From: an uncultured Gammaproteobacteria bacterium | GTDB lineage: Bacteria; Patescibacteriota; Patescibacteriia; UBA1544 | NCBI GenBank assembly: GCA_964652585.1 | Contig: CAZZDA010000001.1 | Span: 1-56,859, forward strand | Direction of reading: 5' to 3' | Length of the DNA: 56,859 nucleotides | Shown: positions 11,495 to 51,649 of the stretch, piece by piece | Layout of the letters: each line of letters starts with the position of its first letter | Position numbering within the stretch: position 1 is the first letter of the stretch | Notes under the pieces: generated by a model | Databases searched by the model: none | What the model saw: the letters and a program-made list of their open reading frames with translations, nothing else | What the model was told of the DNA's origin: nothing | Translations under genes and position numbers: made by a program

Positions 11495-12079
11495 CTAAAG
11501 CTTAAACTTTCCTTTAAAATCTCTATCATACTCTACTTTTTGTGCAGTAATATAGAGTACACGCTTCCCGATATGGAAGTCAGCTTTGAGCATTGTAATC
11601 ACATCCTCGCACGGATAGGGATAGATCCATACGCTGTGCTGCAACCGAACAAATCCAAGATTGATTAAGTTGCCCCTTATTTGGTTGCGCAATACACGCC
11701 TATCTTCCGGTATATCAAAAATGATAATGCGCCACTTGCCGTCCCATTTTTTTGGTTTTTTAATACTTCTCTCACCACACTTGTATTGTTCAAGACGCTT
11801 CTTACCTTTTTCGGTTAAATACAGGAACTTTTTGCCATGCTGTGTTTTAAAGCTTATATACCCTTTGCGTTGAAGTTTTGAGATGATGTCGTTGATGTAT
11901 TTTTTTGGATAATACCTTTTCATACGCATCAATTTTTCATACTCTTTTACCGCAATGGCAACACCGGGAAGAATTGCAAGAACTGCCGGAATGGCTGTGA
12001 CAGCAATTACTCCAAGAACTATTTTTTCAATGGGAATTCGTTGCGTCTCTTTTTTTTGTTTTAAGGCAGTATATGACAT
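11495..12079 (-). CDS. membrane-anchored winged-helix / PaaX_C (Cas2-fold)-like putative regulator
   Basis: WDGKWRIIIFDIPEDRRVLRNQIRGNLINLGFVRLQHSVWIYP matches the PaaX C-terminal/Cas2-like pattern. It is preceded by the wHTH-like segment ISKLQRKGYISF and a TM helix. ATG at 12079 is preferred over the track start inside the hairpin. Confidence 0.65.
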   Translation of the reverse strand: MSYTALKQKKETQRIPIEKIVLGVIAVTAIPAVLAILPGVAIAVKEYEKLMRMKRYYPKKYINDIISKLQRKGYISFKTQHGKKFLYLTEKGKKRLEQYKCGERSIKKPKKWDGKWRIIIFDIPEDRRVLRNQIRGNLINLGFVRLQHSVWIYPYPCEDVITMLKADFHIGKRVLYITAQKVEYDRDFKGKFKL

Positions 12080-12105
12080 AGAAGAAAAAGTATAGCTATA
12101 TCCTA

Positions 12106-12143
12106 GACTGACTCTTTTATGCGGGCGCATATATTAGTCAGTC
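12106..12143. promoter_or_regulatory. hairpin presenting palindromic core ATGCGGGCGCAT (copy R)
   Basis: Structure is gactgact-[cttttATGCGGGCGCATatatt]-agtcagtc, just upstream of the regulator gene. Confidence 0.5.
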
Positions 12144-12348
12144 TTGTGTGTTATAGTATAGCACAGAGCAGCCACATACAAAACAGTTTGTGTTGCGTAA
12201 TCAACTGTCTGGTAACAAAGACTTCCAGAAAACAAGTCGCATATGAGTCATAAGTATGATACATAATTATTTTTTCCAATAGCTATTACATCATCCTTAA
12301 TCACCTACACTTTGGTAAAGACCGATGGAAAAGCGAGTTTTATAAATA

Positions 12349-16371: not shown

Positions 16372-19300
16372 CTACAATCCCTGTACTTCTACCGTTCCCG
16401 CGAACTCATCCCAACCACACATCGGAGGATCTCCAAGATCACCTACGCCGGTGCACCAGCCCCAATTGTCATGAATTTGAATCTTTGGCTTGAACGTACA
16501 GGTATTGCCTGCGCATGTCCCAGGCGGTAACTCCCCTTGATTCTGCTTATCCAAGATATCCCAATAGTTATAAAAGTGTTGGAATGTCTCCGGATTATCG
16601 GTATCCGCTTTTTGGAGCGATGAGAGCCCCGCAACAGTTGTGTACGTGCCATCACCCCAATTGATAATATAGGTTTTAATAGGCAGCTGTTGCGGATCAA
16701 TATCGGTATTAAAGCTTAGGGTAACATAACCGGAAACATTTATCCTTACCAGCGAATCAACTCCCATACCGGTATTATTATTTATCTTAAAGCTATATTC
16801 TTCACACACATCTTCTCCAGGTGCTACGCAATCACCGGGATCGTTACACTCATTCAATCCTATGCTGCACCTGCCTTGCCGTACTTGCGGACGCACCCCG
16901 CAATAGAGATTGACAAGATCAATCGCATTATGATCCGCAATAATGGTAGGAGGAATAAAAGGCGGTACAGGATTTGGTACTGCGCATTCAGCTATAGGAG
17001 GCGACCATTTAGGAATAGCCGGAAACAGCGCATCAACACTTCTATAGTGCTGGTCGTCGCAAATTCCGTCTTCGGTAACCGCACCCGCCGCATCCACCAC
17101 ATTACAACCCACATCTACGGTGCATGATAAACCTTCATTTCCCGGATTGACGCATATTCCCTCCCACGTCCACGCTCCATAACTCTTTACGAAAAGCTGC
17201 TGCAAACGCTGAACAGGAATAGTAAAGTCAAGCGGTGCGGGTGGTGGTGCGACATCGTCACAATTTTCATCACTGCAATCATACGGATTTCCCGCGCGTG
17301 TCTGATAGGGCGATGAAAAATCAGTTGTATTAGGCGGTACCACTTGCAAACGCTGCTTGCCTAACTCTTGCGATCCGTCCCATTCTTCCGGTCTATCAAT
17401 AGAAACGGATGGCGGTACTACCGAGCCAAATGGCGCGTAATCTGACGTATAATTAACAGGATTAATTATTGGGGCAGGGAGAGCGTCAAAATCACTTCTA
17501 AAATAATCGGCAAGTAGTGAGGGAGATGGCGGCGCAGCAGTAAACGCAAAGTTACTCCCTTGCTGCGTACGCGCGTTCCACGGCTTTCCTTCACCACTTA
17601 AGGTAACCACTTTTGACAGGGTATTGCACGTACCTATATTTGCATAAATATTAATTGTGTCCATTGTATTTATGCGATTGCCATCACCGCTTTTATCCCA
17701 AATAACCGTATACATAAATCCTCTAAAATATTCATCTACATTATCAAATACCGCCATAATATTCCAGTTATCTGCCATTGCATCGTCACTTCCTGAATTT
17801 TCTCCACCACCTACTGACCTTAAATACCCACTACAATCATATTGCTCAAACTTTTGCGTACCGTCTGGATTAGTAGTAGTATCTGCGAGTCCGTCTGGAT
17901 TCTGCAACCCGTATCCACTATCGAGACAACCAGTAACATTATTACACCTATCCTGATTACAATATGCCAAATCACGAAGACGCGTACTTAATGTTAGATC
18001 ATCATGTACAAGCGCTCCTCGGTGCTTATTAACAGTACTTATCTTACTCTCGCATACTTCATCCGCCGTTTCGCAATTTAAACCACCACCAACATGAAAG
18101 AAATACCAGTCAGGACAATCTCCCGCATCGTTCCAACCATCTGTCGAAGAACACCACGAATTTATACCACTTCGAGAAGTGTCGCCTACAAGATTTCCTT
18201 TCCAAGAATTACCTCCCGTATATTCAGTACCATTCCATCCACCATTATATGCACCACCAATCTCAATACGTGTTATTGTGCCTTGTTTTAAAAGCTCTCG
18301 TAAATATGAGTCTTCGGATATACCTAAATCGTCCAAAGATATATACCCTGTTTGTGAAGCTCCTCTTCTGCCATCATCAGCATCATTAAGATTAAACGTC
18401 TGCTCAAGCTGGAACACGTTCTCTTCTCGCGTCTCTCCATCCATACAATAATATAATGGCGCGCGGCCGGAGTAGCCCGCGTTAAAGGTGCCAATATCAC
18501 CTTGCACCACATCAACCGGCCACCACATTTGGCAGACATCGCTGTTTTTGGTATCCCATTGCAAGCAATAGCCCAAATCTCCTTTGTATCCTTTGCCTAC
18601 AACATCCCGATATGAGCAAGACGGCGCGTCCGCGGTAGGATAGAGTCGGCAGCTCGCGCCGGTTAAACGATCAACTTCTACAGCTGATTTAGGCGTTACC
18701 GCGTCCAACACGGGACGCAAGCGAATATTGTCCACAAAAATCGTACTCTCCGCTGTATTATTTTCTATAACAATGCTCGCGGAACCGGGGGGTATGGTAA
18801 TATCTACTATATGCGTATTCCATGTTTTCGAGCCCTTTAATTGAATGGACGTTGCCGACCCTGTTACCGAGATTTTTAACGTATTCGTTTCAAGTGCTTG
18901 GCTGGTGTCCGCATCCACCTGTAAATAATATTCGCCCTCAACCACGTCAATAGTGTCAGAGATTACCTCATCCAAACCGCTCACCTTTAGCACATTATTG
19001 CCGTCCGGCGCTTTGGTAAAACCATTTTTTTCAAAATCAAGCGGGTTATTTAAGACACGATAATTATCTCCACCGCTCCAGCCGTATGGCTTGTTATTGG
19101 TTTTATCAAATTCTTCAAAACTGCCATTGGACACGCGACCTGTGTTGCCTCGCTGCACCGCTTGATGCAATGGCACATAGCCCGCGACACTCTCGCCGCC
19201 GCCCCAGTTATATCCGGGCAAGCTATAACCTGTTAAGTCAGCGATGTCAGCAGGATTGTTGAGTTCATTTGACGGAGCACTTTCGCGCTGCACCACGCCC

Positions 19301-22300
19301 GTACACTTACCGTTTTCGTCCAGTTCATTACAAAGCCCTATGCCATAGCATTGATTTTCCACCACGCCTTGAGCGTTTTCAGATTGAGAAAGCGTTTCGC
19401 AATATAGCCACTCTCCGCATGAGCGGTCGGGACGGACTTTGACCAGCGTATTGGCTTCGCAGGCGGAAATAGCGCCAGGTTCGCATACAACCCAGCCCGT
19501 ACCTTCCTCCGGTTTGCCAGTATTGGAACTGAAATTATGGTCAGGGTCGTATTGCACTTGCGTAAGCGAGGCAGCTTTCGTTGCCTCATTTAACAACACA
19601 CAACCATTGTCAAAGTCTACTACGCCATTACAACTGGTTTTATCCAGCGTAGAGTTGACAAGATAATCAATATTCACCTTACGCAATTCTATATTATCAA
19701 AAATATGCCCTGTGCCAAGAGCCGGACTTCCTCCATGATCCGCCCCAAAACAAAGAGATGGATTTCCTCCTTGGCCCGAGTAAAATCTTCCGCTGAATCT
19801 TTGAAACTTATTTGATATGTAATCCCAATTAAACCAAGTGTTCACCTCATCCGCAGGTCCTGTGAGCCCCAAAACGGTTAATTCATCATTACTTAGCGCC
19901 ATAGATTGATCGGAAGATGTAAGGCCTGAAGGACATACGGCTGACTCCGTACACACACCAAGAGTGATGCCATACAAAGGATCGGGATTGTAATTGCATG
20001 CAGGAATATCACATCGCCCCGGAATAATTGGTGCGCCACCACCGGGATCAAAATTACATTCGCTATGCGCAAAGCAGTCAAATGTGTTGACAACGGATGG
20101 ATCGCTCGGAGGAGTACATTTTCCGTTGATGCCGCCATTCAATTGACAATCACTACTTGGTCCACAACGATCTACCGTTTCACCCGGGCGACCCGGTATC
20201 GTTTCTGCGTTTGCAGGATCTCCGCCATTATCCGTACAAACACCCCATTGACCAGTTCTTGCACTATCAATCATGATACGAGGACTATTTCCGTCAAGTC
20301 CATTTTTTACAAAAGCAGAAACCTCATACATCGTATTCGGCTCCAGTATAATTCCCTGACATATATTTCCACCTCCGGATATTTCCGCATTTACTCCAAA
20401 AGAGCTTTGGATGCCGGAACCACTAGTATAGCCAAGTAGCGCACTTCCACCGTCAACCCACCCGTCCGGTACACCATCGCCATTCGCGTCCTGTTCAAAA
20501 TCGCCGTTAAAGAGAGTATTGGGATTGAACAAGCTCATAGGATCCATATACTGCGTACAACCGGACTCGTCTGCCGGACAAAACCCCGCCCAACCGCCTG
20601 CCGGTTGTTGTATGGTTTGGCCGTTGTACCCCATACGCGAGGTTATTGGACAATCGGGAGCACCCGCGACCGATCCGCGCTTAAACCATCCGCTTTGTCC
20701 GCCAATACCGTCTTTCCATTCGCAGGTGTGCAGCTTAGGATCCTTAAAATACGATAAGCCACCTTCGTAAAAATATTCCTCGCACCACAACTCCTCTGCC
20801 ACGCAAAGCGCGGTAGGGTAGGTATCCGGATCATCACGCAAGTATGTTGCTTCAAAACCGGTTAAGATATTTTCCAAATCAAATTGCGGCAGTCCGAGCA
20901 GTCGGCACGCTTGCCCTTCCGGATTGCAATACTTATTCGGATCATTAATGACATACACAATGTTATCAGCCGATACATTAACGTCATCTATAGTTGGTAC
21001 ATTGGTCGTGTTAAAGTTTTCCGCGAATGGATTGTCAGAATTATGCGTGTCAATCATTGCTTCACAGCCTATCGCTTCTTCGCGGCACAAATTACTAAAA
21101 CTCTTCAAGTTATGCGCAGCACCCCGCGTATCCGTATATGCCTCGCACCCCAGCGCGTATTGCGGCCAAGGGTCGCCCGCGGGCGTGGCATCACAGCTCG
21201 ACGGCGTATTCCATGATCCCGCTATCATATAAATATTTTCCTTTACTTCAGTGAGGCGTACATTGTCTATGAAGAATGGCAGACCAAGATTAGTTGCGGC
21301 GTCAGTGGTAAAATTAAGCGTTTCTTGCGGATCAATAGCCCAATTGACCGGTATTGGACCAAGTGTGTATTGCCGCCAGTCTTGGATTAAGTGTATAAGC
21401 GGCGGACGGGTGGTAATATCCGTGTCAGCAAAATATTGACCGGCGGCGAGCGCGGCACCGGAAAAATTGACGGTCATATCTCCCGTACCTTTCGCCCAGA
21501 ACGAGAGTTTATACGCTTTGTCTTGCTGTATCGCCTCACCCGCACGGGTGTCCAGCGCTTGGATGGCGTTGGAGAAAAGGGTTTGATTGATACGACGATT
21601 AAGGGGGTAGATATGCGGCTGGTGATGATACCAGCGCCCTTTTCCTGATTCTGCTAAATAAAGTGCTTCAGGATATCGTTCGCCAGGTTGGCGCTCCTCT
21701 GCAATTACAACTGCTGCCGGATGTACTTCTTCTATGCGATATCTATTATCTGCAAAACTTCCAGAGCTTGTCTTCCATCCACGGGCGATAAAATGATTGT
21801 TAGTGCTATAAATGACCGGCTCATCTGCTATAAGTATGTTTCCAGAAACAATAGGTAAAATATCTGCGGCGGTCGTGTCATTTCCTTGAGTAAACATGCT
21901 ATAGCCCACATTATAGAGCTGCTCAAGAAGAGGACCTTGCGTGATAGGCCATGCGTCTTTGATAGCCAGTACAATATCAGGTTGATACCCTGTTATCGTG
22001 GTATAATCCACAACGCCGCCACCTTCTACAAAGTCAATAAGTCCATTATCATCATCGTCAACTGAAAGATCAATAACTTGATATCCTAAATTGCCAAACA
22101 ACTCCTCCCAATAAGGTAAATGTATAGTATCCCATTGATTCGGACTGCCTATTCCTGTCCAATTAGTGTCAGGACCTTCAATAATCAACGCCAGTTTGCT
22201 TACCGACCTGCGAGTATTAGTAGTGCCGCCTGCATCTTGAACTTTTTGCGAATGACCGCCAAGATTAGTGGATTCGCTGGACACCGCGATATCCGACCCC

Positions 22301-25300
22301 GCGTATTGGCGAATATCACTCTCATTTTCAAAGGTATCAGTAAAGAGCGTACGCGTATTGCGCGCGGCGTTCCCTGAATATTCGCGGCAGTTTTTTGCGC
22401 GCTCAGAGCACGTCTCACCTTGCCCGGGAACCGCGTGGTAGATACAACTGCCTGTTCCTATGGGACCGCATACACCATCACCTGATCCGACAGATGTATC
22501 GCAATCACTATCAATATTACATCCAAGCCCCACTGTGCCCGCTTCACACAACTGATCACGCCATTCGCCGCCTGTTGTTGTACAATTTATATCTTGTGTC
22601 GCGTTGTCTAAAACCGCACTGCGTGTCATCCTATACGGATGGCAGTCGGTGGTACAAGAAAACGTCGTGTCAAAAAATTTATAACGCGCATTACCACCGT
22701 CGTCAAAAAATTCGCGACAATTAGGGTCTGCTAATGCATCTCCCTCACTGTTACAACCCGTAAGAGGACCGCCGGTACCAACAGGATCAAAGCCGCCAAG
22801 CACTGCAACAGATTTTAATTCTTCGCTTATCAGTTGATACCCTGTTTCGTCCGATCCTATCCAGCTAAAGAATGTTTCGCACGTCTCGCCCAGCGCGGAA
22901 TCAAGTTGCGCCGGATTTGCCTGCCCAAATTCATCCACCAAAACGCATTGGCGCAGTTTTGTAAAATATTCTATGGCCTCAGGCGCGTACTCTACGTCGC
23001 CATCCGCGTTTACCGCGGCAAGCCTATCTAAATTGGTAAACTCTGTACACCCCGCCTCTTTCGCGCTGCATTTGTCACCCGTTGCCGGAATAAAGAAGAG
23101 TGGGAAAACAGGGTCTTGTTCAAAATAGCTCACTTCTTGCTGGAACGTGTCATACCCCACGCATTCAGCGGAACACGTGTCATTCTCACCAACAACGCCC
23201 GGCACGGTTGGACCGCCGCTTTTTGGCGTATATCCTTGACAGCCGACTTCATCTTCAAAGCATGAAAGCGCGTAATTGCCACACGCAACTTTGTCAATTT
23301 GTCGGCACTCGCTTGCAATACCATCCTCAAACCAAAACTGCCCGTCTTCTGTGCAATCCGCTTCTGATACCCCACCTATTGCAGGTCCCGGATTATTCGA
23401 CGTAAACCCTTGGCAGTTTAAGTAGTCGGGTGCCACTTTTTCATGGATGACATTTTTTGTGCCATAGTCGCTGTACGCGGTTGTGGTGTCGCCAATTTCA
23501 AATTGGACCGCGTCAACCCACATTTGCGCGCCGGCACTGCGGATACCGCGCACCATTACACTTACTCTAATTAAGGACGATATTAATTGAGGTGGCATGT
23601 TTGCCACCACGCTTTGTCTTTGAAAATCTGTGTTTGTCATACCATCTCTACCGCGCGTTCCTTTACTGAAATAGTCAAAGTAACACTCTCCTGTTCCACC
23701 AGCCCAAACATAACCAAGAGCACCACAGCTTGCCGCATTAAAACCTGAAAAATTTGTTCTAATTCCAATTTGCCAAGAATCTTCCCCCGCAACGATAGTG
23801 CCACCTATTTTCCCGTAACCGCTAAGTGTATAAATGTGTTCTGTAGGAGTAATAAATATATCACTTCCGGGAATATATGAATTTGAAAGACCTAAATCAC
23901 CAATCTTCCCGTCCGGGAGTAGTAGATCAGGATTAATTATTTCTATCATTTGACTTTTTCCACCACTTACCGATGTTGTGGTATCAATTGTATGGTCACC
24001 TAATCCCCCAGCAGGAGTTGCTCCACCAAACCCTACACCCCATCCATCCGCTAATCCATCGCTATTACTATCAGTTTCAAAACTCGGTTGTTTAATAAGA
24101 TTCGTTCCTTTTGTAATGCGTATCAACTCACTGCAGCCGACATCATCCTCGTCACACTCTTGCGCGTCGCGGTCAAGGTAGCGGCGCTGGTCGGTCGCGC
24201 TGTCCGTGCAGGTAAACTCACCTGTTGCAATATCAATATCCGTGCAATACCACGCGCACCCCGCGTTATCAATGGAACAGTCGGTAAAGGTGAGCGTGTC
24301 TTGCAGATAGCTTACGTCGTTGCCGTTTTTATCTTCAAAGGTTTGGCAGGTTTGATTGCGCGGCTCGCAAATTTGCGAATCCACGCCATAGTCCCAACCT
24401 CTGCGTTCTTCGGTGCAGTAACCATAAAATTCACAGGTGCCGTCCTGCCTTTCTTTAATGCACGAGCGCTCATCCGCGCAATAATTGGCATCGCGTCCGA
24501 TAACTCGCGTTGGCGGGGTGTCATCCGGGTCGTCAAAGTCGCCGTCTTGGTTTTGGTCAACACCTGTCACCACTCTCTCGGAAAGAATGACCGGCCCGGA
24601 ACCTTTCTTACCACAATACGCTTCCGGCGCTTTCAGTACCCAATTAGGATCTATCATGCCGCGAAACGGACTGGCACTATTTTCAAAATTATTGATCAGC
24701 TGACGCAAATTTTGTTGTTCGTGGCCAATGTCTTTAATATACAGCGCCGCCAATTCCCAACCCACGGGAATAATGCGATGCTTGCGCAACACAATAAGCG
24801 AACGGTACGGATACCCTTCTTTATAATTTGGCTCAAATCCGTCCGCGCTAAAACCAAGGGTAATACTATCGTCCAACAATCCTTCATCTATCGCTTCTTT
24901 GATTGTGAACTCTCTCTCTATAGCTTCGCGAAAGCTCTCGGTGATAATACAATCATTCGGTCCCGGATTTTCCTCGTCTCGGCATACGGTTAATTCACGT
25001 AAAAGCTCGTACGGACCGCCGGCTTTTGTTTGTGATTTTCCCAGTTTTGCAAAACGAATTTCGGCTCCTTTAATACCGCCGCCAAAAGATGATGATGATG
25101 GGTTGTAAAGACCTGCAGTAGCACCGCTACTAGATCCGCTGCTGCCGCTTCCTTGCAAAGAAGCAATGCCTTTCTTAAACCATTGCTCCAATAAATTTCC
25201 AGCGAGTGATTGCGCAAAGATATCAACAGCATCTGCTACAATACTTCCTGTTGTAGTTTTTTCCGCTCCAGTACTATCTTTTATTGTCCCACCGAACAAC

Positions 25301-26340
25301 TCAACCACAAATTTTCCCGGTGTGACAACTGATCCAGTTATAATATCTGTCACGGGACTAACACCACTTGACTCTAATCTTCCAAGTTCTTTGAGTTTTT
25401 TTTCAAGTTCTTTGTCTGTCAAGACATTAGTATGTACTGTCAGCGCGATGCCTAGATCATTTTCCCATGGATTAAAGTTTGCCTGAAATTTATTGAGAAA
25501 ATTAGGATCATTAATTTCATCTTCCCAATTGTCAATAATTTTAGAGAGCGTACAACGCGGCGAAGAGAAAGTACTGCCCTTCTGCAATCCGGCAGTAATA
25601 CGCATTTGTACTTGTAAATCTGGTTTGCAAATATTTTGAAGTATAGATCCTGCTTGACGTTTCACTACCGCTTTTTTAATATCTTTGATAACATTAAGCA
25701 TTGCACCTTCCCGTCCCTTCAACAGTATCAGTTCATTGACACATTGTTCGCTTTGCTCGCCAAAAACATCACCTCCAAATGTCTGATAATCCTCTAATGA
25801 CGCATTACACTCTTTTTCTTTTAATTTTATCTTGTCTTGTAAATCCACTAATTGTTTTTTACTATCTTCCGGTATTGTTCCTTCATGTTCAGACTCCGCT
25901 TTACTCCATTCAGTGGCAAGTGTTTCTATATAAATACCCGCAGCGGCATCTCCCGCATTTTTTAAATATTCACCCCACCCTTCGGTTATAAACATCGGTT
26001 GCTGCCCCTTGCTACCAGAGCCAAGCCACGTACCCGTATCATATGCCACCTTATTTAAAAAATTTTTCAGTGCAGCTTTATAAGCGATTGCCCATGCTTC
26101 GTCTTCTGCATCTCTAACATATTCAAGCACAACTTTCGACTCTTGAACTACAAAGTCTGCGGCTTGCGCAAGTTTATCAAGGATAAATTTACCTACTCTT
26201 TGTGGAACCGCTAAAAAATCTTCTACTGGAATAGCATGTACAACAGGCGGGCGCACAAAAAGCATCATGCTGAAAAACAGCATTATAAATAATAATCGTA
26301 CTTTTATATTTTTTTTACTCTTGTTGTGAACTCTTGACAT
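16372..26340 (-). CDS. giant Cys-rich secreted/surface protein (about 3322 aa) with four CBM_4_9-like modules and a C-terminal PKD-like domain
   Basis: Uninterrupted 10-kb ORF starting at ATG 26340 with signal/TM LLFIMLFFSMMLFVRPPVVHA. Modules begin with FETDSNSDGLADGW, FTDTFENESD, FNGDFEQDANGDGVPDGW and SNGSFEEFDKTNNKPYGW. They end in VDAVQFEIG, IDNVRLTEV, FDNIELRKV and VDNIRLRPV. The C-terminus has INWGDGTYT..HFYNY. Confidence 0.85.
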   Translation of the reverse strand: MSRVHNKSKKNIKVRLLFIMLFFSMMLFVRPPVVHAIPVEDFLAVPQRVGKFILDKLAQAADFVVQESKVVLEYVRDAEDEAWAIAYKAALKNFLNKVAYDTGTWLGSGSKGQQPMFITEGWGEYLKNAGDAAAGIYIETLATEWSKAESEHEGTIPEDSKKQLVDLQDKIKLKEKECNASLEDYQTFGGDVFGEQSEQCVNELILLKGREGAMLNVIKDIKKAVVKRQAGSILQNICKPDLQVQMRITAGLQKGSTFSSPRCTLSKIIDNWEDEINDPNFLNKFQANFNPWENDLGIALTVHTNVLTDKELEKKLKELGRLESSGVSPVTDIITGSVVTPGKFVVELFGGTIKDSTGAEKTTTGSIVADAVDIFAQSLAGNLLEQWFKKGIASLQGSGSSGSSSGATAGLYNPSSSSFGGGIKGAEIRFAKLGKSQTKAGGPYELLRELTVCRDEENPGPNDCIITESFREAIEREFTIKEAIDEGLLDDSITLGFSADGFEPNYKEGYPYRSLIVLRKHRIIPVGWELAALYIKDIGHEQQNLRQLINNFENSASPFRGMIDPNWVLKAPEAYCGKKGSGPVILSERVVTGVDQNQDGDFDDPDDTPPTRVIGRDANYCADERSCIKERQDGTCEFYGYCTEERRGWDYGVDSQICEPRNQTCQTFEDKNGNDVSYLQDTLTFTDCSIDNAGCAWYCTDIDIATGEFTCTDSATDQRRYLDRDAQECDEDDVGCSELIRITKGTNLIKQPSFETDSNSDGLADGWGVGFGGATPAGGLGDHTIDTTTSVSGGKSQMIEIINPDLLLPDGKIGDLGLSNSYIPGSDIFITPTEHIYTLSGYGKIGGTIVAGEDSWQIGIRTNFSGFNAASCGALGYVWAGGTGECYFDYFSKGTRGRDGMTNTDFQRQSVVANMPPQLISSLIRVSVMVRGIRSAGAQMWVDAVQFEIGDTTTAYSDYGTKNVIHEKVAPDYLNCQGFTSNNPGPAIGGVSEADCTEDGQFWFEDGIASECRQIDKVACGNYALSCFEDEVGCQGYTPKSGGPTVPGVVGENDTCSAECVGYDTFQQEVSYFEQDPVFPLFFIPATGDKCSAKEAGCTEFTNLDRLAAVNADGDVEYAPEAIEYFTKLRQCVLVDEFGQANPAQLDSALGETCETFFSWIGSDETGYQLISEELKSVAVLGGFDPVGTGGPLTGCNSEGDALADPNCREFFDDGGNARYKFFDTTFSCTTDCHPYRMTRSAVLDNATQDINCTTTGGEWRDQLCEAGTVGLGCNIDSDCDTSVGSGDGVCGPIGTGSCIYHAVPGQGETCSERAKNCREYSGNAARNTRTLFTDTFENESDIRQYAGSDIAVSSESTNLGGHSQKVQDAGGTTNTRRSVSKLALIIEGPDTNWTGIGSPNQWDTIHLPYWEELFGNLGYQVIDLSVDDDDNGLIDFVEGGGVVDYTTITGYQPDIVLAIKDAWPITQGPLLEQLYNVGYSMFTQGNDTTAADILPIVSGNILIADEPVIYSTNNHFIARGWKTSSGSFADNRYRIEEVHPAAVVIAEERQPGERYPEALYLAESGKGRWYHHQPHIYPLNRRINQTLFSNAIQALDTRAGEAIQQDKAYKLSFWAKGTGDMTVNFSGAALAAGQYFADTDITTRPPLIHLIQDWRQYTLGPIPVNWAIDPQETLNFTTDAATNLGLPFFIDNVRLTEVKENIYMIAGSWNTPSSCDATPAGDPWPQYALGCEAYTDTRGAAHNLKSFSNLCREEAIGCEAMIDTHNSDNPFAENFNTTNVPTIDDVNVSADNIVYVINDPNKYCNPEGQACRLLGLPQFDLENILTGFEATYLRDDPDTYPTALCVAEELWCEEYFYEGGLSYFKDPKLHTCEWKDGIGGQSGWFKRGSVAGAPDCPITSRMGYNGQTIQQPAGGWAGFCPADESGCTQYMDPMSLFNPNTLFNGDFEQDANGDGVPDGWVDGGSALLGYTSGSGIQSSFGVNAEISGGGNICQGIILEPNTMYEVSAFVKNGLDGNSPRIMIDSARTGQWGVCTDNGGDPANAETIPGRPGETVDRCGPSSDCQLNGGINGKCTPPSDPSVVNTFDCFAHSECNFDPGGGAPIIPGRCDIPACNYNPDPLYGITLGVCTESAVCPSGLTSSDQSMALSNDELTVLGLTGPADEVNTWFNWDYISNKFQRFSGRFYSGQGGNPSLCFGADHGGSPALGTGHIFDNIELRKVNIDYLVNSTLDKTSCNGVVDFDNGCVLLNEATKAASLTQVQYDPDHNFSSNTGKPEEGTGWVVCEPGAISACEANTLVKVRPDRSCGEWLYCETLSQSENAQGVVENQCYGIGLCNELDENGKCTGVVQRESAPSNELNNPADIADLTGYSLPGYNWGGGESVAGYVPLHQAVQRGNTGRVSNGSFEEFDKTNNKPYGWSGGDNYRVLNNPLDFEKNGFTKAPDGNNVLKVSGLDEVISDTIDVVEGEYYLQVDADTSQALETNTLKISVTGSATSIQLKGSKTWNTHIVDITIPPGSASIVIENNTAESTIFVDNIRLRPVLDAVTPKSAVEVDRLTGASCRLYPTADAPSCSYRDVVGKGYKGDLGYCLQWDTKNSDVCQMWWPVDVVQGDIGTFNAGYSGRAPLYYCMDGETREENVFQLEQTFNLNDADDGRRGASQTGYISLDDLGISEDSYLRELLKQGTITRIEIGGAYNGGWNGTEYTGGNSWKGNLVGDTSRSGINSWCSSTDGWNDAGDCPDWYFFHVGGGLNCETADEVCESKISTVNKHRGALVHDDLTLSTRLRDLAYCNQDRCNNVTGCLDSGYGLQNPDGLADTTTNPDGTQKFEQYDCSGYLRSVGGGENSGSDDAMADNWNIMAVFDNVDEYFRGFMYTVIWDKSGDGNRINTMDTINIYANIGTCNTLSKVVTLSGEGKPWNARTQQGSNFAFTAAPPSPSLLADYFRSDFDALPAPIINPVNYTSDYAPFGSVVPPSVSIDRPEEWDGSQELGKQRLQVVPPNTTDFSSPYQTRAGNPYDCSDENCDDVAPPPAPLDFTIPVQRLQQLFVKSYGAWTWEGICVNPGNEGLSCTVDVGCNVVDAAGAVTEDGICDDQHYRSVDALFPAIPKWSPPIAECAVPNPVPPFIPPTIIADHNAIDLVNLYCGVRPQVRQGRCSIGLNECNDPGDCVAPGEDVCEEYSFKINNNTGMGVDSLVRINVSGYVTLSFNTDIDPQQLPIKTYIINWGDGTYTTVAGLSSLQKADTDNPETFQHFYNYWDILDKQNQGELPPGTCAGNTCTFKPKIQIHDNWGWCTGVGDLGDPPMCGWDEFAGTVEVQGL

Positions 26341-26416
26341 GAAAGAAAATATATAGTATTCTGTTGTCACTTAGGAGTTTTTGTTCCTCACAACCCACAA
26401 TACAAAGGAGAAGCTC

Positions 26417-43951: not shown

Positions 43952-44136
43952 GTATGCAATTAAATATCATCTCGAATTATACCTTATGACGTCCTTCGAC
44001 TTCGCCAGTTCGACAGGCTCACTGACTTCGTTCAGGACATTCAACTCGCTAGAGATAGATTACATAGTGCTAGCACCATTGAGTGAATAAAAGAGACCGT
44101 TTGGTGGGACACCATGAGCGAGCGAAGCGAGTCGAA

Positions 44137-44213
<77 letters not shown>

Positions 44214-44323
44214 ATTTTAAAAAGTTGCGTAGACAGTACTAGTATACTGTCTTGCAAAAAAATATCAATATGCTATGCTGGTTACCGCTACAGCATACGG
44301 ATAAAAACTCTGTTTGTCAACGA

Positions 44324-44400
44324 CGCGGGGTGGAGCAGTCTGGCAGCTCGTCTGGCTCATAACCAGAAGGTCGAGGGTTCAAATCCCTCCCCCGCAACCA
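44324..44400 (+). tRNA. initiator tRNA-fMet(CAU)
   Basis: CGCGGGG...CTCATAA...GAGGGTTCAAATCCCTC-CCCCGCA-ACCA. The C1:A72 mismatch is typical of bacterial initiators. Confidence 0.85.
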
Positions 44401-44452
44401 AAGAGTCCTTAAGGTTTTTCTTAGGGATTTTTTTGTATGAATATCTGATTAT

Positions 44453-44482
44453 AAAAAAGAGGCAGTCCAATTGAGATGCCTC
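44453..44482 (-). terminator. intrinsic terminator after leuA
   Basis: Minus strand reads GAGGCAtctcaattggacTGCCTC followed by TTTTTT. Confidence 0.55.
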
Positions 44483-44510
44483 ATATGCATTAGGTTGTGT
44501 AAGGAACAAT

Positions 44511-46085
44511 TTATACAACTTCCTGTGAAGCTAGTGCGGTGCGATTGCGCTTCCAGCTTTCCATGCGGTTGAGCGCGTTCACATAGGCATTAGCTGACGC
44601 AATCACGATATCAGTACTGGAACCTTGTCCGGTAATTACTCTTTCAGGGTGTACATCGGGAGAATGTTGTTCTGCAATTTTAACCATTACCTCGGCCTGA
44701 GCATCCGTACCGCTGGTGATCGCCTTGACCACATACGCCTTGAGCACGGCACTACTTTCCACAATCTCCTTGATGGCGTGAAAACAAGCGTCCACCGGTC
44801 CATCACCGTTTGACGTCACTTCCAACTCTTCGCCTTCCACTTTCATACGAACAGTGGCCGTGGGTTGCATCTCCGAACCCGAGCGCGTATCCACAAAAGT
44901 GAGAGTGAAATAATCCGACTTGCGGTGTACCACCTCATTAACTACCGCTTCCACATCTTCGTCAAACACGTACTTCTTCTTGTCGCACAGACTCATAAAA
45001 CGTATGTATGCATTTTCTATCTGCCCTTTATCAAGAACATGGCCAAGTTCCATCAGCTTATCAGTGAAGGCGTGACGGCCGGAGTGCTTACCCAAAACGA
45101 TAGTGCTGCTTGGCTGTCCGATTGATTCCGGAGTCATAATCTCATAGGTAGCCCGGTGCTTGAGTACCCCGTCCTGATGAATACCTGCTTCATGGGCAAA
45201 TGCATTAGCGCCAACTATGGCTTTATTTGCCTGCACAACCATTCCGGACATCTCAGACACCAGCCTTGAGGTATGGTAGATCTCTTGGATATTAACTGCG
45301 GTAGTAAATGGGAAGAAATCTGCTCGGGTGCGCAACGCCATCACCACCTCTTCCAAAGAGGCGTTGCCGGCCCGTTCACCAAGACCATTCACCGTGCATT
45401 CCACCTGACGAGCACCAGCCTGAATAGCCGCCAAGGAATTGGCAACAGCTAATCCAAGATCATTGTGGCAATGAACGGAGATTATCGCATTGTCAATGTT
45501 GACCACCTTTTCCTTCAGTGTACGAATCAGCCGGTAGAACTCCTCGGGTACCGTATACCCAACCGTATCCGGAATGTTGATTACTTTCGCACCAGCATTG
45601 ATCACCGCCTCAACCACCTCGCACAGATAGACAACATCAGTGCGCGCCGCGTCCTCGGGGGAGAATTCAACGTTGTCCGTGAGGCTCGCCGCCAGCTCCA
45701 CCATCTTCGCTGCCTGAACAAGCGCGGCTTCACGGCTCATGTGTAGCTTGTGTTCTAGATGGAGATTGGAAGTCGCCAAGAAGGTGTGGATGCGCGGATG
45801 CTCAGACAGCTGCACCGCCTCCCACGCCCGATGAATATCTCCTTCCCGCGCTCGTGCCAAAGCAGCAATCTGTGGACCATCTATCTCACCGGCTATACGC
45901 TGGACGGCGTCAAAATCGCCGTCAGAGGCAATAGGGAAACCCGCCTCGATAATATCAACTCCGAGCCGTACGAGCCGATGAGCAACACGCAACTTCTGGC
46001 CGGTATTCATGGAAGCGCCGGGCGACTGCTCCCCATCTCGCAAAGTAGTGTCAAAGATGTCAACCTTTTCCTGTTGTGTTGTCAT
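44511..46085 (-). CDS. leuA: 2-isopropylmalate synthase (LeuA/CimA family, with C-terminal LeuA-dimer regulatory domain)
   Basis: IFDTTLRDGEQSPGASM, HCHNDLGLAVANSLAA, HEAGIHQDG, and a C-terminal ACT-like domain. Confidence 0.9.
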   Translation of the reverse strand: MTTQQEKVDIFDTTLRDGEQSPGASMNTGQKLRVAHRLVRLGVDIIEAGFPIASDGDFDAVQRIAGEIDGPQIAALARAREGDIHRAWEAVQLSEHPRIHTFLATSNLHLEHKLHMSREAALVQAAKMVELAASLTDNVEFSPEDAARTDVVYLCEVVEAVINAGAKVINIPDTVGYTVPEEFYRLIRTLKEKVVNIDNAIISVHCHNDLGLAVANSLAAIQAGARQVECTVNGLGERAGNASLEEVVMALRTRADFFPFTTAVNIQEIYHTSRLVSEMSGMVVQANKAIVGANAFAHEAGIHQDGVLKHRATYEIMTPESIGQPSSTIVLGKHSGRHAFTDKLMELGHVLDKGQIENAYIRFMSLCDKKKYVFDEDVEAVVNEVVHRKSDYFTLTFVDTRSGSEMQPTATVRMKVEGEELEVTSNGDGPVDACFHAIKEIVESSAVLKAYVVKAITSGTDAQAEVMVKIAEQHSPDVHPERVITGQGSSTDIVIASANAYVNALNRMESWKRNRTALASQEVV

Positions 46086-46316
46086 AACTCTCTCCTCTAG
46101 TGTGTGTTACAACGAAAACTTCTGTTCGCTATTCTATTGTCAAGGTACTAAAGGAACATCTGAAAAACTCCGAAGTTGCTCTTTTTTATTATTTTTCCCT
46201 TCAACTTCTTTATCAAAAAGCTAAAAATACTCTGCATTTCCACGATTTTCGCTTCATCGTTGAAGAAAAAAATCTCTAAAAATTAGCACATCCGTAGTTT
46301 TTCAGATATTCCTAAA

Positions 46317-46344
46317 CTAAAAAACCACCCTTCTCTTGGGTGGC
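46317..46344 (-). terminator. intrinsic terminator/attenuator between the leader ORF and leuA
   Basis: Minus strand reads GCCACCCaagagaaGGGTGG followed by TTTTTTAG. Confidence 0.6.
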
Positions 46345-46367
46345 AAACCTTTTGTATTTTCTTTCTA

Positions 46368-46460
46368 TCAACTAGTTTGATACATACGAAAACGAGCCAC
46401 CCGTAAAGGCAGTAACAACAATGAAGCTAGCAATAAATTGTGTCGGTTAGCTTGTTTCAT
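46368..46460 (-). CDS. candidate Leu-rich leader peptide (30 aa) MKQANRHNLLLASLLLLPLRVARFRMYQTS
   Basis: The ATG is about 10 nt after a TATAAT box. 8 of codons 9-19 are Leu. An attenuator hairpin lies downstream and leuA follows. Confidence 0.45.
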   Translation of the reverse strand: MKQANRHNLLLASLLLLPLRVARFRMYQTS

Positions 46461-46470
46461 ATATAATCCC

Positions 46471-46498
46471 ATTATAGACGTTTTTGATGTATTGTCAA
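46471..46498 (-). promoter_or_regulatory. near-consensus sigma70 promoter (TTGACA, 16-nt spacer, TATAAT)
   Basis: Minus strand reads TTGACAatacatcaaaaacgtcTATAAT. Confidence 0.5.
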
Positions 46499-46510
46499 TG
46501 CACCTGCAAC

Positions 46511-46546
46511 TAAAAATCCTCAAGGAATACCTTGAGGATTTTTTTG
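46511..46546 (-). terminator. bidirectional intrinsic terminator after the M16 peptidase gene
   Basis: ATCCTCAAGG-aata-CCTTGAGGAT flanked by an A tract and a T tract. Confidence 0.75.
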
Positions 46547-46566
46547 TAAAATAAACAGATACTCTA

Positions 46567-47841
46567 CTACTTCGCAACAGCAATCAGTTTTTTAAACGGC
46601 TTAGTGTTTTTGTACGGCCCGATCATGGCAAGTGTGAGGCGAGCAGGAATCATCACTTTTTTTGCCACTTCCTGAATATCCGCAAGCGTTACTTTTTCCA
46701 ACTGCTTCATTTTTTGTTCCGGGGTCAATACTTTCTTTGTTAAAAGCGCTTGTTTCGCAAACCACTCCGCCAAAGCGGAAGAGTCTTCCAGCGCTAATAT
46801 CATTTTACCCGCATAGTATTGCTTCGCTTTTTTAAGTTCTGCTGCGGTTACACCTTTTTCTCTCACCTGATAAAGCTCTTTTAAGATGAGTTCTAACGCC
46901 GGTATAATACGCTTGCTATCAAGACCCGCATGCACTTCAAAATTACCCCTGTCTTCATACACGGTCATACCTGCTCGTATCAGATAGCACAATCCCTTAC
47001 GCTCACGCACGCGAATAAAGAGACGCGAGCTCATGTTCCCACCCATAATAGTGCTCAAGAGCTGCAAAGCGGGAAGCTGTGAGCTGGTGTAACCAAACGC
47101 GGGCCAGCCGAGCATCACTTGTGTTTGATTTGTATCTCTATAAAGACATTTCACTCGGGGATTTTTTTGATCTACCGTAAAAGGTTTATATGTCCGCAAC
47201 TTCTTTTGTATTGTGTTTTTGTTTCCAAAATACTGCTCTACTTGCTTTTCAATGTCATCCGTTATTTTCCCTCCAATCGCTAGCACCGCATTATGTGGCT
47301 GATAAAAATGATTCTTATAGGCAAGCATTTTTTCTCGCTGCATGGTGTCCACGGTCTTTTCCGATCCTGCAATATTCCATCCCAAAGTTGAGCCGGAAAA
47401 CATTGCGCTTTCAAAAATATCTCCTATATACATAAGCGGATTGTCTTCGTACATGCGAATCTCTTCTTTAATAACTCCGCGCTCTCTATCAAGTTCTTTT
47501 GCGTCAAACTTTGATCGATAAAGCATATCTGAGAGCATGTCCAATGCCAATCCTATTTTTGGTGCGGCGACTTTAATGTAGTAGCCCGTATGATCCTTGC
47601 CAGTAAACGCATTAAATTCCGCGCCAACACTATCAAGCTCTTTTGATATTGCAAGAGTGTTGGGACGCTTCTTTGTTCCCTTGAACATCAAGTGCTCCAA
47701 GAAATGCGAAACTCCATTTAAAGATTTCGTTTCATAGCGCGAACCAACTTTGTAGAGTATAAGCACCGTTACTGCCGCGGTATCTTCGCGAGGCACCACA
47801 ACTGCCCGCATGCCGTTTTTGAGTTGAAATCTCTTATACAT
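46567..47841 (-). CDS. M16 (pitrilysin) family zinc peptidase
   Basis: HFLEHLMFKGT inverted zinc motif (HxxEH). Confidence 0.85.
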   Translation of the reverse strand: MYKRFQLKNGMRAVVVPREDTAAVTVLILYKVGSRYETKSLNGVSHFLEHLMFKGTKKRPNTLAISKELDSVGAEFNAFTGKDHTGYYIKVAAPKIGLALDMLSDMLYRSKFDAKELDRERGVIKEEIRMYEDNPLMYIGDIFESAMFSGSTLGWNIAGSEKTVDTMQREKMLAYKNHFYQPHNAVLAIGGKITDDIEKQVEQYFGNKNTIQKKLRTYKPFTVDQKNPRVKCLYRDTNQTQVMLGWPAFGYTSSQLPALQLLSTIMGGNMSSRLFIRVRERKGLCYLIRAGMTVYEDRGNFEVHAGLDSKRIIPALELILKELYQVREKGVTAAELKKAKQYYAGKMILALEDSSALAEWFAKQALLTKKVLTPEQKMKQLEKVTLADIQEVAKKVMIPARLTLAMIGPYKNTKPFKKLIAVAK

Positions 47842-51094: not shown

Positions 51095-51649
51095 ATGCAA
51101 AAGTCAAAAAAACACTCATCAACGCTCGCGGTTAATAAGCGAGCCCATTATGACTTCGATATTCTGGAAACATTTGATGCCGGTTTAGTGTTGACCGGAT
51201 CTGAAGTAAAAGCCGTCAAAAATGGTCATATTAAGATCGTTGAAGCATATATTACCCTCAAAAACACTTCTCTTCCGGCAAAAAAACAGCCTGCGACAAA
51301 AAAAGAAAAAAAGGTGACTATGTCCGCACGTACAAAAACCGAACTTTATCTGACCAATGCCTATATTTCTCGTTATAAACCGGCAGGTCCTGACCTTTCC
51401 TATGACCCAACACGCCCGAGAAAGCTACTTCTCCATAAAAAAGAAATAGCCACTCTTGCCGGAAAAAAGACCCAGAAAGGGTTGACAATGGTGCCTTTAA
51501 AGGTGTATACTAGTCGGGCTCTTGTGAAAGTTACTTTTGGTCTTGCCCGAGGAAAAAAGAAGTATGATAAGCGGCAAGCTCTCAAGGAGCGCGAAATAAA
51601 GAAGCGTATCACAAGCGTTCTTCGACAAGGGGATGAAGGGCTTCGATAG
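51095..51649 (+). CDS. smpB: SsrA-binding protein SmpB (with Lys-rich internal insertion)
   Basis: NKRAHYDFDILETFDAGLVLTGSEVK, YDPTRPRKLLLHKKEI, GLARGKKKYDKR. Confidence 0.9.
   Translation: MQKSKKHSSTLAVNKRAHYDFDILETFDAGLVLTGSEVKAVKNGHIKIVEAYITLKNTSLPAKKQPATKKEKKVTMSARTKTELYLTNAYISRYKPAGPDLSYDPTRPRKLLLHKKEIATLAGKKTQKGLTMVPLKVYTSRALVKVTFGLARGKKKYDKRQALKEREIKKRITSVLRQGDEGLR

Follow-up and report, generated by a model that had tools for sequence, protein, structure and literature searches.

A leucine-rich leader upstream from leuA in a Patescibacteria contig: a probable ribosome-mediated attenuator and its wider family

What governs the transcription of leuA, the gene for 2-isopropylmalate synthase, in an uncultured bacterium placed among the Patescibacteria, and what is the role of the short, leucine-rich open reading frame (ORF) that precedes it? 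The DNA considered here, contig CAZZDA010000001.1 of the GenBank assembly GCA_964652585.1 (positions 1 to 56,859, referred to hereafter as the window), carries a promoter, a 30-codon ORF, and an intrinsic terminator upstream from leuA, in this order, on the minus strand. An original prediction, made from the sequence of the window, named sequence elements that were all confirmed at their stated positions, and had read this arrangement as the architecture of transcription attenuation, an interpretation that is supported by the order of the elements, by mutually exclusive pairings in excess of chance, by conservation, and by the match between codon run and pathway in the sister leaders. The element is very likely to be a ribosome-mediated (leader-peptide) transcription attenuator, which would tie the transcription of leuA to the level of charged tRNA-Leu.

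The promoter (46471..46498, minus strand) is of the sigma-70 type, with the -35 box TTGACA at 46498..46493, a 16-nt spacer, and the -10 box TATAAT at 46476..46471, and it scores 12/12 against the consensus that it had been predicted to approach. The region has two promoter-like sites, against 1.6 expected. Judging by the position of the promoter, the transcription of the leader would start near 46464. The leader ORF (46460..46368, minus strand), which has 30 codons and a TGA stop at 46370..46368, encodes MKQANRHNLLLASLLLLPLRVARFRMYQTS, and its ATG (46460) lies 10 nt past the -10 box. Eight Leu fall within codons 9-19, as predicted, and the putative regulatory block (46404..46436, minus strand) is formed by codons 9-11 (TTA TTG CTA), 14-17 (TTG TTG TTA CTG), and 19 (TTA), at positions that are kept in the family described below. 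Between this ORF and leuA, the predicted intrinsic terminator is found at 46344..46319, with GCCACCC, a 7-nt loop (aagagaa), GGGTGG, and T6. Its hairpin has a free energy of -11.7 kcal/mol when folded alone, and a terminated leader transcript would be approximately 145 nt long, with no Stem I or specifier-loop architecture. A 193-nt contig from a second, independent sequencing study (X2) is identical to the window over 46328..46520, with zero variation. Leader ORFs are left uncalled by the gene callers in loci L001 and L092.

Four minus-strand regions can be recognized in the leader. Region 1 (AAACAAGCTA, 46448..46457, ORF codons 2-5) is the candidate anti-antiterminator strand, and pairs with TGGCTCGTTT at 9 of the 10 positions in the window. 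The 3' part of region 2 (GGGTGGCTCGTTTT, 46389..46402) pairs with region 1, and its 5' part, which includes the antiterminator strand GGGTGGC at 46402..46396, pairs with region 3. This region 3 (GCCACCC, 46338..46344) is the 5' arm of the terminator, also used by the antiterminator, as indicated by sequence and folding. Region 4 (46319..46330) comprises the 3' arm of the terminator, GGGTGG (46330..46325), and the U-tract (46324..46319). The 7-bp pairing of the GGGTGGC of the leader codons with GCCACCC had been foreseen in the original prediction, and the pairing of region 1 with region 2 had been missed.

When folded in both conformations, a check that had been proposed with the prediction, the fold in which the 5' arm of the terminator is paired upstream is isoenergetic with the terminator fold (-33.3 versus -33.1 kcal/mol, a gap of -0.2), and the two are mutually exclusive. 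This alternative fold consists of two helices, the 7-bp GGGUGGC:GCCACCC helix and the pairing of the sequence just 5' of GGGUGGC with the 3' arm of the terminator. When the upstream part was shuffled 1000 times with its dinucleotides preserved, the same gap was +11.3 +/- 4.4 kcal/mol, with 0.5% of the shuffles reaching the native value, and the exact GGGUGGC arose in 0.18% of the shuffles. The folding energy of the 171-nt stretch as a whole is unremarkable (z = -0.85). Stretches of 11 codons that have no stop and 8 or more Leu number 2 in the six frames of the 56.9-kb window, one of these being the leader ORF, and 12 in 890 kb of Patescibacteria loci, an overall rate of approximately one per 30-70 kb. 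The chance of finding such a Leu-dense stretch on the sense strand within the 480 nt before leuA is estimated at approximately 0.004.

The pairing of regions 1 and 2 is conserved beyond the window. In all 12 aligned Leu leaders, AAACAAGYYA (codons 2-5) can pair with UGGCUYGUUU, which comprises the last four bases of GGGUGGC and the next six, over 7-10 of the 10 pairs. The 1:2 helix is also predicted independently by RNAalifold, in a form that takes in the start codon, together with the terminator and a small ACCY:GGGU hairpin. With the 1:2 helix and the terminator, 95% of the cells of the alignment are paired, a proportion that falls to 29-55% if the partner strand is displaced by 1-3 columns, and locus L111 has a matching 3-nt loss on both strands of the helix (AAAGCCA / TGGCTTT). 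Given that three leader groups each have GGGTGGC in another reading frame (cGG GTG GCt, ttG GGT GGC, and GGG TGG Caa), the constraint on this motif would act on the RNA. The conserved MKQ terminus of the peptide may likewise be explained at the level of the RNA, since codons 2-5 form the 1:2 helix. This helix appears to be the anti-antiterminator of a classical attenuator, and would complete the 1:2 / 2:3 / 3:4 scheme.

The transcription start, the translation of the ORF, stalling, termination, and the direction of the response are inferred from this layout, and the process would run as follows. Transcription would start approximately 4 nt before the ATG, producing a nearly leaderless leader mRNA. 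With no ribosome, or with a ribosome that has already reached the stop codon, region 1 (AAACAAGCUA, codons 2-5) would pair with the 3' part of region 2 (UGGCUCGUUU), which would leave region 3 (GCCACCC) free for region 4 (GGGUGG-U6), and the RNA polymerase would terminate near 46319. When Leu-tRNA is scarce, the ribosome would stall at the first Leu codons (9-11), covering or sterically blocking region 1. The GGGUGGC would then be left free to pair with GCCACCC once this is transcribed, the terminator would be excluded, and transcription would run into leuA. The model requires stalling at the first Leu block and, under Leu sufficiency, the re-pairing of 1:2 behind the ribosome before region 3 is made. 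As the start codon is part of the 1:2 helix, initiation would probably be possible only during the transcription of the leader.

The positions of the ribosome were modelled by masking its footprint on the leader RNA before folding. With no ribosome, the minimum-energy fold is formed by the 1:2 helix and the terminator. With the A-site at Leu 9-11, the footprint extends as far upstream as region 1 and leaves GGGUGGC free, and the antiterminator beats the terminator by approximately 3 kcal/mol.

If the leader controls leuA, then it should recur upstream from leuA in relatives, as the original prediction had proposed to check, and both the leader ORF and the triad GGGTGGC/GCCACCC/GGGTGG are in fact conserved there, in L092 and L114. 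Both of these loci were found through LeuA protein similarity alone, rather than through the triad. The LeuA of L092 (P0008) is 66-67% identical, is the seventh-best LeuA homolog, and lies on a contig of 44% GC. Upstream from this gene are an equally perfect TTGACA-16-TATAAT, an ATG 12 nt past the -10 box that opens a 30-codon ORF (MKQVKRQNLLLTSLLLLPSRVARFHIYQTN), then CGGGTGGCTCG, and then GCCACCC-aaaacaa-GGGTGG-T6, with leuA approximately 45 nt further on. In L114, a metagenome-assembled genome (MAG) labelled Patescibacteria at NCBI, MKQVIQKNLLLGLLLLLPLRVACFYVDKE and the same triad precede leuA. The L114 protein P0122 is the nearest relative of the L098-type LeuA outside the cluster of L098 itself, which makes it an unbiased check. 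The covariance model R1 scores 142.8 bits on L092 and 133.3 bits on L114, as triad-independent relatives. The non-Patescibacteria relatives with 74-78% LeuA identity in the L098-type search have no similar leader.

A scan of a metagenome collection for the triad pattern GGGTGGC-N40-65-GCCACCC-N5-9-GGGTGGTTTT recovered 21 loci, against a rough chance expectation of approximately one. Most of these loci lie on contigs of 36-44% GC and share this architecture, including homologous ORFs, even though the pattern does not specify an ORF. The M16 peptidase and GlyRS genes of these contigs are 54-61% identical to those of named Patescibacteria loci. The leader ORF of the window is homologous to those of L092, L093, L094, L098, L101, L104, L107, L109, L110, L111, L113, and L114, with the consensus peptide M-K-Q-[VA]-x-x-x-N-L-L-L-x-L-L-L-L-L-P-x-R-V-A-C-F. 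In the 12 aligned Leu leaders, the ATG, frame, stop, and Leu positions are kept, the ORF has 25-30 codons, and 7-10 of these are Leu. The L114 leader agrees with them in ATG, frame, and length. The Leu positions are constant, and the codons vary synonymously among TTA, TTG, CTA, CTG, CTC, and CTT. The mixed Leu codon usage, considered atypical in the original prediction, is thus a trait common to the family. The -10 or extended -10 box is retained in the other members, and a terminator is present in every one.

The near-leaderless start, also considered atypical, proved to be usual. All the family members start 8-14 nt after the -10 box, with a 5' untranslated region of 1-7 nt (approximately 4 nt in the window) and no Shine-Dalgarno (SD) sequence. 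An SD-like core was found upstream from just 4 of the 32 long ORFs in the window (with starts, for example, at 47841, 49950, and 51095), and a TATAAT lies 9 nt ahead of the ATG at 51095. SD-less or leaderless initiation thus seems to be the rule in the source organism.

Most family members, across all types of codon run, have a conserved box, GTTCTTT(A/T)AAA, between the terminator and the SD sequence of the downstream gene, for example, at L092 285..330, L098 2160..2190, L104 12200..12235, and L114 4970..5000. The copy in the window (approximately 46145..46156) is degenerate, TTCCTTTAG, and stands just after the palindromic insert described below.

Does the codon run, then, have anything to do with the gene that follows? 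A covariance model built from the Leu leaders found further elements in the same contigs, and these sister leaders carry other codon runs and other, still complementary, switch sequences. Ile runs precede a citramalate-synthase homolog in L098 (leader MNLAQGTIIIIGIIGIIIIGNRFYCALKAKLE; TIGR00977, 331 bits), a LeuA/CimA-family homolog in L114 (leader MSLIQSIIIIIAIIGIIIIGNRSYYALKAKLK; same Pfam domains and gene order, no NCBIfam score), and a citramalate synthase in L097 (leader MNYKQTQLTNISIISSIIMLRFLGGPNVI; TIGR00977, 661 bits, cut-off 450). In L104, a Val/Ile/Leu run (MPVRKERENILVLIVSIVVVALLGRGLKIS) has a citramalate synthase (641 bits) approximately 680 nt downstream, and an aromatic run (MTEIKHTIGQFFFSFYYFWFPRGGRFLCLNRSW) precedes a 2-amino-3,7-dideoxy-D-threo-hept-6-ulosonate (ADH) synthase (TIGR01949, 352 bits, cut-off 299), the first enzyme of the alternative aromatic amino-acid pathway. 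A Met/Ala run in L093 (MKQAIRHNAMAVMMAAATPQRVACFHI) precedes an 85-aa protein with no assigned function. Citramalate synthase is preceded by 6-12 Ile, isopropylmalate synthase by 7-10 Leu, and ADH synthase by 7 Phe, 2 Tyr, and 2 Trp, and where the downstream gene is identifiable, the codon run matches its pathway. This correspondence is the strongest comparative argument for a sensing mechanism that would operate via translation.

The exchange can also be observed within a single contig. In L093, the scaffold MKQ..N[run]PQRVACF holds LLLGLLLLLL in one copy and AMAVMMAAAT in the other, 2 kb apart, which fits a swappable codon sensor, unlike a conserved membrane peptide. The switch strands change together as well, with the triad of L111 being GGGCGG / CCGCCC / GGGCGG, and the aromatic group having GAGGAGATTGG (...ATTGG) / CCGGCTCCTC / GGGAGCCGG in L094, against ...ATCAG / CTGGCTCCTC / GGGGAGCCAG in L098.

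These runs bear directly on the possibility that the ORF encodes an independently acting small hydrophobic peptide (of the membrane, for example), with the hairpin ending its transcript and leuA being transcribed from another promoter, such as that of the insert site. The central stretch of the peptide, LLLASLLLLPL, is indeed hydrophobic, but has just 11 residues, too short for a membrane span, and on the same scaffold the run is swapped for Ile, aromatic, or Met/Ala codons that track the downstream enzyme, an exchange that speaks against a membrane peptide. Real proteins contain Leu-rich stretches more often than any other kind, and the coincidence between Leu and leuA is thus weaker than a flat probability implies; the antiterminator, however, is far better than chance, GGGTGGC is kept in three reading frames, and the N-terminal MKQ(V/A) is explained by helix 1:2. 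A promoter-like site does exist at 46216..46188 in the window, but no second promoter is evident in the 30-50 nt before the leuA of the relatives. Even with some family members preceding unrelated small genes, an independent peptide is considered very improbable.

Nor does the leader resemble the known structured RNAs. In Rfam 15, no family reaches the gathering score in the whole window except tRNA and tmRNA. A cmscan of 44000..47000 at E <= 10 left Leu_leader (RF00512), the Leu-phe leader (RF01743), and T-box (RF00230) all unmatched, with weak, below-threshold matches touching the leader from SNORA61 (plus strand) and U6atac, and Rfam searches of seven related loci returned no match to the leaders. 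These results bear on a second alternative, an RNA-only switch (a T-box-like tRNA sensor, a riboswitch, or the target of a protein antiterminator), in which the ORF would be incidental and untranslated. GGGUGG resembles the core of the T-box sequence, but there is no convincing Rfam match to the leader even at E <= 10, and a transcript of approximately 145 nt lacks the Stem I and specifier-loop architecture. The triad sequence is conserved beyond what pairing needs, but the 7-10 Leu codons vary synonymously, so that the amino acid is kept rather than the sequence or the pairing. The absence of an SD sequence at the start would also suit an untranslated ORF, but SD-less starts are normal in the genome of the window, and the ATG, frame, and stop are conserved. 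On balance, there is hardly any probability that the switch works without translation.

The leader-peptide attenuator thus remains the preferred reading, and the sister leaders are accompanied by a number of further observations. Small Cys-rich proteins (CxC / CxxC, 50-96 aa, no Pfam match) are the first gene after several Leu-rich and Ile/Leu/Gly-rich leaders, at L095 2192..2435, L103 1047..1251, L113 approximately 11947..12156 (minus strand), L107 1681..1776, and L111 approximately 4188..4350, all in locus coordinates. In L095, L099, and L103, ribosomal protein S1 comes next after the Cys-rich gene. A protein of approximately 130 aa stands behind a Leu leader and a short acidic ORF at L094 2602..2992 (minus strand), with homologs in L110 and L101, and its N-terminus shows a weak resemblance to the beginning of the C-terminal regulatory domain of LeuA (pairwise E = 0.015, no Pfam match). 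Three to four attenuator units stand in tandem at L098 163..4116, L114 2868..7000, L104 9548..12768, and L093 1195..4656, with the order Ile leader and cimA-like gene, Leu leader and leuA, and aromatic leader and small protein. Such a row may constitute an amino-acid starvation locus. The L104 contig, with three leaders, also has a group I intron (RF00028, 78 bits) at 5874..6126, beside tRNA genes.

How did leuA come to lie behind such a leader in this genome? The leuA gene (46085..44511, minus strand) encodes a 524-aa 2-isopropylmalate synthase (NCBIfam NF002086, 763 bits, cut-off 532), has a strong SD sequence, GGAGAGAG, at 46095..46088, and ends at its own intrinsic terminator (44453..44482, minus strand), with GAGGCA, a 12-nt loop, TGCCTC, and T6. 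Its composition is foreign, with 52% GC and 54% GC at third codon positions, against 43% and approximately 40% in the window. The nearest LeuA proteins, which are 74-81% identical, are encoded on contigs of 65-72% GC in the order ilvBN-pssA-leuA(-leuB), with one set coming from a MAG labelled Nitrospirae, and no similar leader was found upstream from these homologs. A second donor-like group, L115-L119 (ilvBN-ilvC-cimA-leuA), has no match to the leader covariance model. As these lineages have no leader, the leader would not have travelled with leuA from either of them.

The LeuA of the L098/L114-type Patescibacteria is nearest to another donor group, with 70-78% identity, ilvBN-ilvC-cimA-leuA operons, and several matches labelled Desulfobacterales. 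It would appear that leuA was acquired at least twice, and was put behind the same kind of leader each time. Some of the GC-rich relatives share another conserved element of approximately 200 nt upstream from leuA, at L002 4679..5000, L006 1..229, and L090 232..557, with GTGCAACCCTCGCT ... GAGATCCTCTGAGG ... and a terminator-like hairpin, CCTCGGAGGGG-T5, and no Rfam match. This element may be a different, undescribed regulator of leuA.

The neighboring genes place the window in the Patescibacteria, or Candidate Phyla Radiation (CPR), with an M16 peptidase 76% and a GlyRS 82% identical to those of L010 ('Parcubacteria group bacterium CG08_land_8_20_14_0_20_48_21'), the closest genome, where the genes between tmRNA and M16 stand in the same order. 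L010 has a single copy of the M16 terminator hairpin, with two divergent tRNA-Met genes directly after it and no leuA at that place. The window has two copies in the same orientation (46545..46501 and 44434..44389; blastn identity of 77% over 47 nt), each formed by the M16 terminator hairpin and the first 10 nt of the tRNA-Met 3' end. In the first copy, the hairpin of the M16 peptidase gene (46512..46545, minus strand) is joined to a tRNA-Met remnant, GTTGCAGGTG (46510..46501), and in the second (44389..44434, minus strand), the M16-type hairpin meets the 3' end of the tRNA-Met gene (44324..44400, plus strand). These direct repeats enclose approximately 2.05 kb, which comprises the promoter, leader, terminator, leuA, and leuA terminator, and includes no integrase.

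Based on the flanking direct repeats, the single copy in L010, the foreign GC and SD sequence of leuA, and its GC-rich homologs, the leader and leuA together are interpreted as a horizontally acquired cassette inserted beside tRNA-Met, an origin unremarked in the original prediction. The cassette looks like a tRNA-site insertion or the remnant of a larger island. None of 80 Patescibacteria loci anchored on the M16 peptidase gene has an adjacent leuA or a convincing leader, and these loci were used for synteny and background alone. The attenuator unit itself would belong to a Patescibacteria family of modular attenuators, having arrived in this genome together with leuA, as the 2-kb cassette. 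Another Patescibacteria MAG (L021, 11100..11360) has a citramalate/isopropylmalate-synthase homolog directly after tRNA-Met and tRNA-Leu genes, with no leader, which is a second case of a LeuA/CimA-type gene beside tRNA-Met. Elsewhere in the window, a very long ORF of 3332 aa lies on the minus strand at 16372..26370.

The cassette was apparently modified further. A palindromic sequence of approximately 150 nt (46157..46307), resembling a miniature inverted-repeat transposable element (MITE), with 17-nt terminal inverted repeats, ATCTGAAAAACTACGGA ... TCGGAGTTTTTCAGATG, and 69% self-complementarity over 165 nt, lies between the attenuator and leuA. Three further contigs from the source metagenome carry copies approximately 85% alike, at similar depth, and the sequence is absent from L092, L098, and L114, where the terminator is 30-50 nt from leuA. 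It is best understood as a secondary, MITE-like insertion, which accounts for the 230-nt gap between terminator and leuA, also unremarked in the original prediction. Without it, the terminator of the window would be approximately 70 nt from leuA, near the 30-50 nt of the relatives.

The insert raises the question of whether the attenuator of this particular genome is a relic, uncoupled from leuA by the palindromic insertion or by the loss of the pathway. Between the terminator and leuA, there are now 150 nt with long hairpin potential and a promoter-like site, no leuB, leuC, or leuD is found nearby, and the 1:2 helix of the window has one mismatch; yet all the elements are intact, with a 12/12 promoter, an open ORF, and a perfect triad. 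The leader is identical in the second, independent sequencing study (the 193-nt X2 contig), and leuA is itself intact, above its family cut-off. A decayed, uncoupled leader is therefore regarded as unlikely, and a working attenuator is still preferred.

A number of points weigh against a working attenuator and have to be set beside this evidence. Some come from the footprint folding, where the geometry is not that of the textbook. With the A-site at Leu 14-19, region 2 is masked and the terminator is favoured, and a ribosome at the stop codon leaves region 2 uncovered, with the folds equal (-26.7 versus -26.4 kcal/mol). For this reason, termination under Leu sufficiency would have to rely on the re-forming of 1:2. 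Others concern the comparative evidence, which is weakened by the choice of the 21 loci through the exact triad and by the great similarity of the Leu-group sequences, with only slight covariation inside this group (one pair changed on both sides). A crude shuffle test of terminator against alternative gave mixed values on the model-found leaders, the A-tract bases of long stems being forced to pair upstream, and these leaders were judged by their visible three-strand complementarity rather than by this test. Several family members precede genes with no known tie to an amino acid, such as the small Cys-rich proteins and an 84-aa protein.

The remaining points concern transcription and the organism. 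None of the RNA runs searched contains the window. On L098, the metatranscriptome contigs match parts of leuA and the stretch beyond the third leader, but not the leaders, and contigs give no 3' ends. To our knowledge, the coupling of transcription and translation has not been studied in Patescibacteria. The promoter-like site within the palindromic insert (46216..46188, TTGATA-17-AATAAT, 10/12) could drive leuA independently of the attenuator. There is no leuB, leuC, leuD, or ilv gene in the 57-kb window, in which leuA stands alone.

A broader scenario can be outlined, and is advanced tentatively, as slightly less probable than its converse. The Patescibacteria might hold a native set of modular, near-leaderless attenuators, each with a start region complementary to the antiterminator strand, a codon run that can be exchanged, and a switch of the GGGUGGC/GCCACCC type, in versions for Leu, Ile, aromatic amino acids, and possibly Met/Ala. 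These units would have been placed before first-step enzymes that were each acquired independently (cimA, ADH synthase, and leuA, the last from two or more donor lineages) and before small Cys-rich proteins, forming an amino-acid starvation regulon, with the units of attenuator and gene being mobile as cassettes.

The CPR organisms are generally regarded as auxotrophic symbionts. The evidence from this locus and its relatives suggests that ultra-small Patescibacteria probably use a ribosome-stalling switch to sense their amino-acid supply. If this is true, then ultra-small, uncultured bacteria monitor the levels of charged tRNA for each amino acid, and control the committed enzymes in the synthesis of Leu, Ile, and aromatic amino acids, a point relevant to their real degree of auxotrophy. 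Attenuation would also work on near-leaderless, SD-less mRNAs, with the start codon inside the switch, and a set of uncharacterized small proteins would be under amino-acid-specific control, providing a first functional handle on them. The leader family is also a practical marker for annotation, and the codon run predicts the pathway of the downstream gene.

How, finally, does this leader compare with the systems already known? Leader-peptide attenuation is a textbook mechanism, known mainly from the Proteobacteria, with scattered cases in the Firmicutes and predictions in the Actinobacteria. The original prediction knew of no such mechanism in this kind of organism, and full-text searches of a collection of papers listed none on such leaders in the CPR/Patescibacteria. 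The leader would be, in effect, a new family of a known kind of attenuator. One of its closest counterparts is the enterobacterial leu leader (leuL, RF00512), with which it shares a promoter-proximal short ORF with a Leu run, an intrinsic terminator before leuA, the exclusive 1:2 / 2:3 / 3:4 pairings, and the same presumed logic, in which a stalled ribosome would lead to read-through. In leuL, however, there are four consecutive Leu codons, inside region 1, whereas the leader of the window has eight Leu codons in two blocks, with four different codons, in the loop between regions 1 and 2. Region 1 of the window is at codons 2-5, the wider 1:2 helix includes the start codon, the mRNA is near-leaderless, with no SD sequence, and the host is one of the Patescibacteria. 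The T-box riboswitch (RF00230) also relies on competition between terminator and antiterminator in a 5' leader over amino-acid genes, and has a conserved GGGUGG-like motif, but the leader of the window has no match to its model and no Stem I, carries many codons rather than a single specifier, and has an ORF that is conserved as a frame.

Two further systems are found outside the Proteobacteria. In the ilv-leu operon of Staphylococcus aureus, a conserved Leu-rich leader peptide and a terminator control the branched-chain genes, as supported by Leu depletion and attenuator mutants (PMC5794164). The S. aureus operon is also under the control of CodY (PMC5794164). This system belongs to another phylum, is unrelated in sequence, and is supported experimentally, whereas the leader of the window is a prediction from sequence. 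In the Actinobacteria, leader ORFs with runs of amino-acid codons, and a LEU element, have been predicted upstream from leuA, ilvB, trp, and cys genes (PMC1262725). These leaders resemble that of the window in being predictions of comparative genomics outside the Proteobacteria, with a Leu run upstream from leuA (PMC1262725). For the actinobacterial leuA element, a pseudoknot of the Leu codons with the leuA SD sequence was proposed, with no classical terminator, and mutational tests in Streptomyces did not fit classical attenuation (PMC1262725). By contrast, the leader of the window has a canonical pair of terminator and antiterminator.

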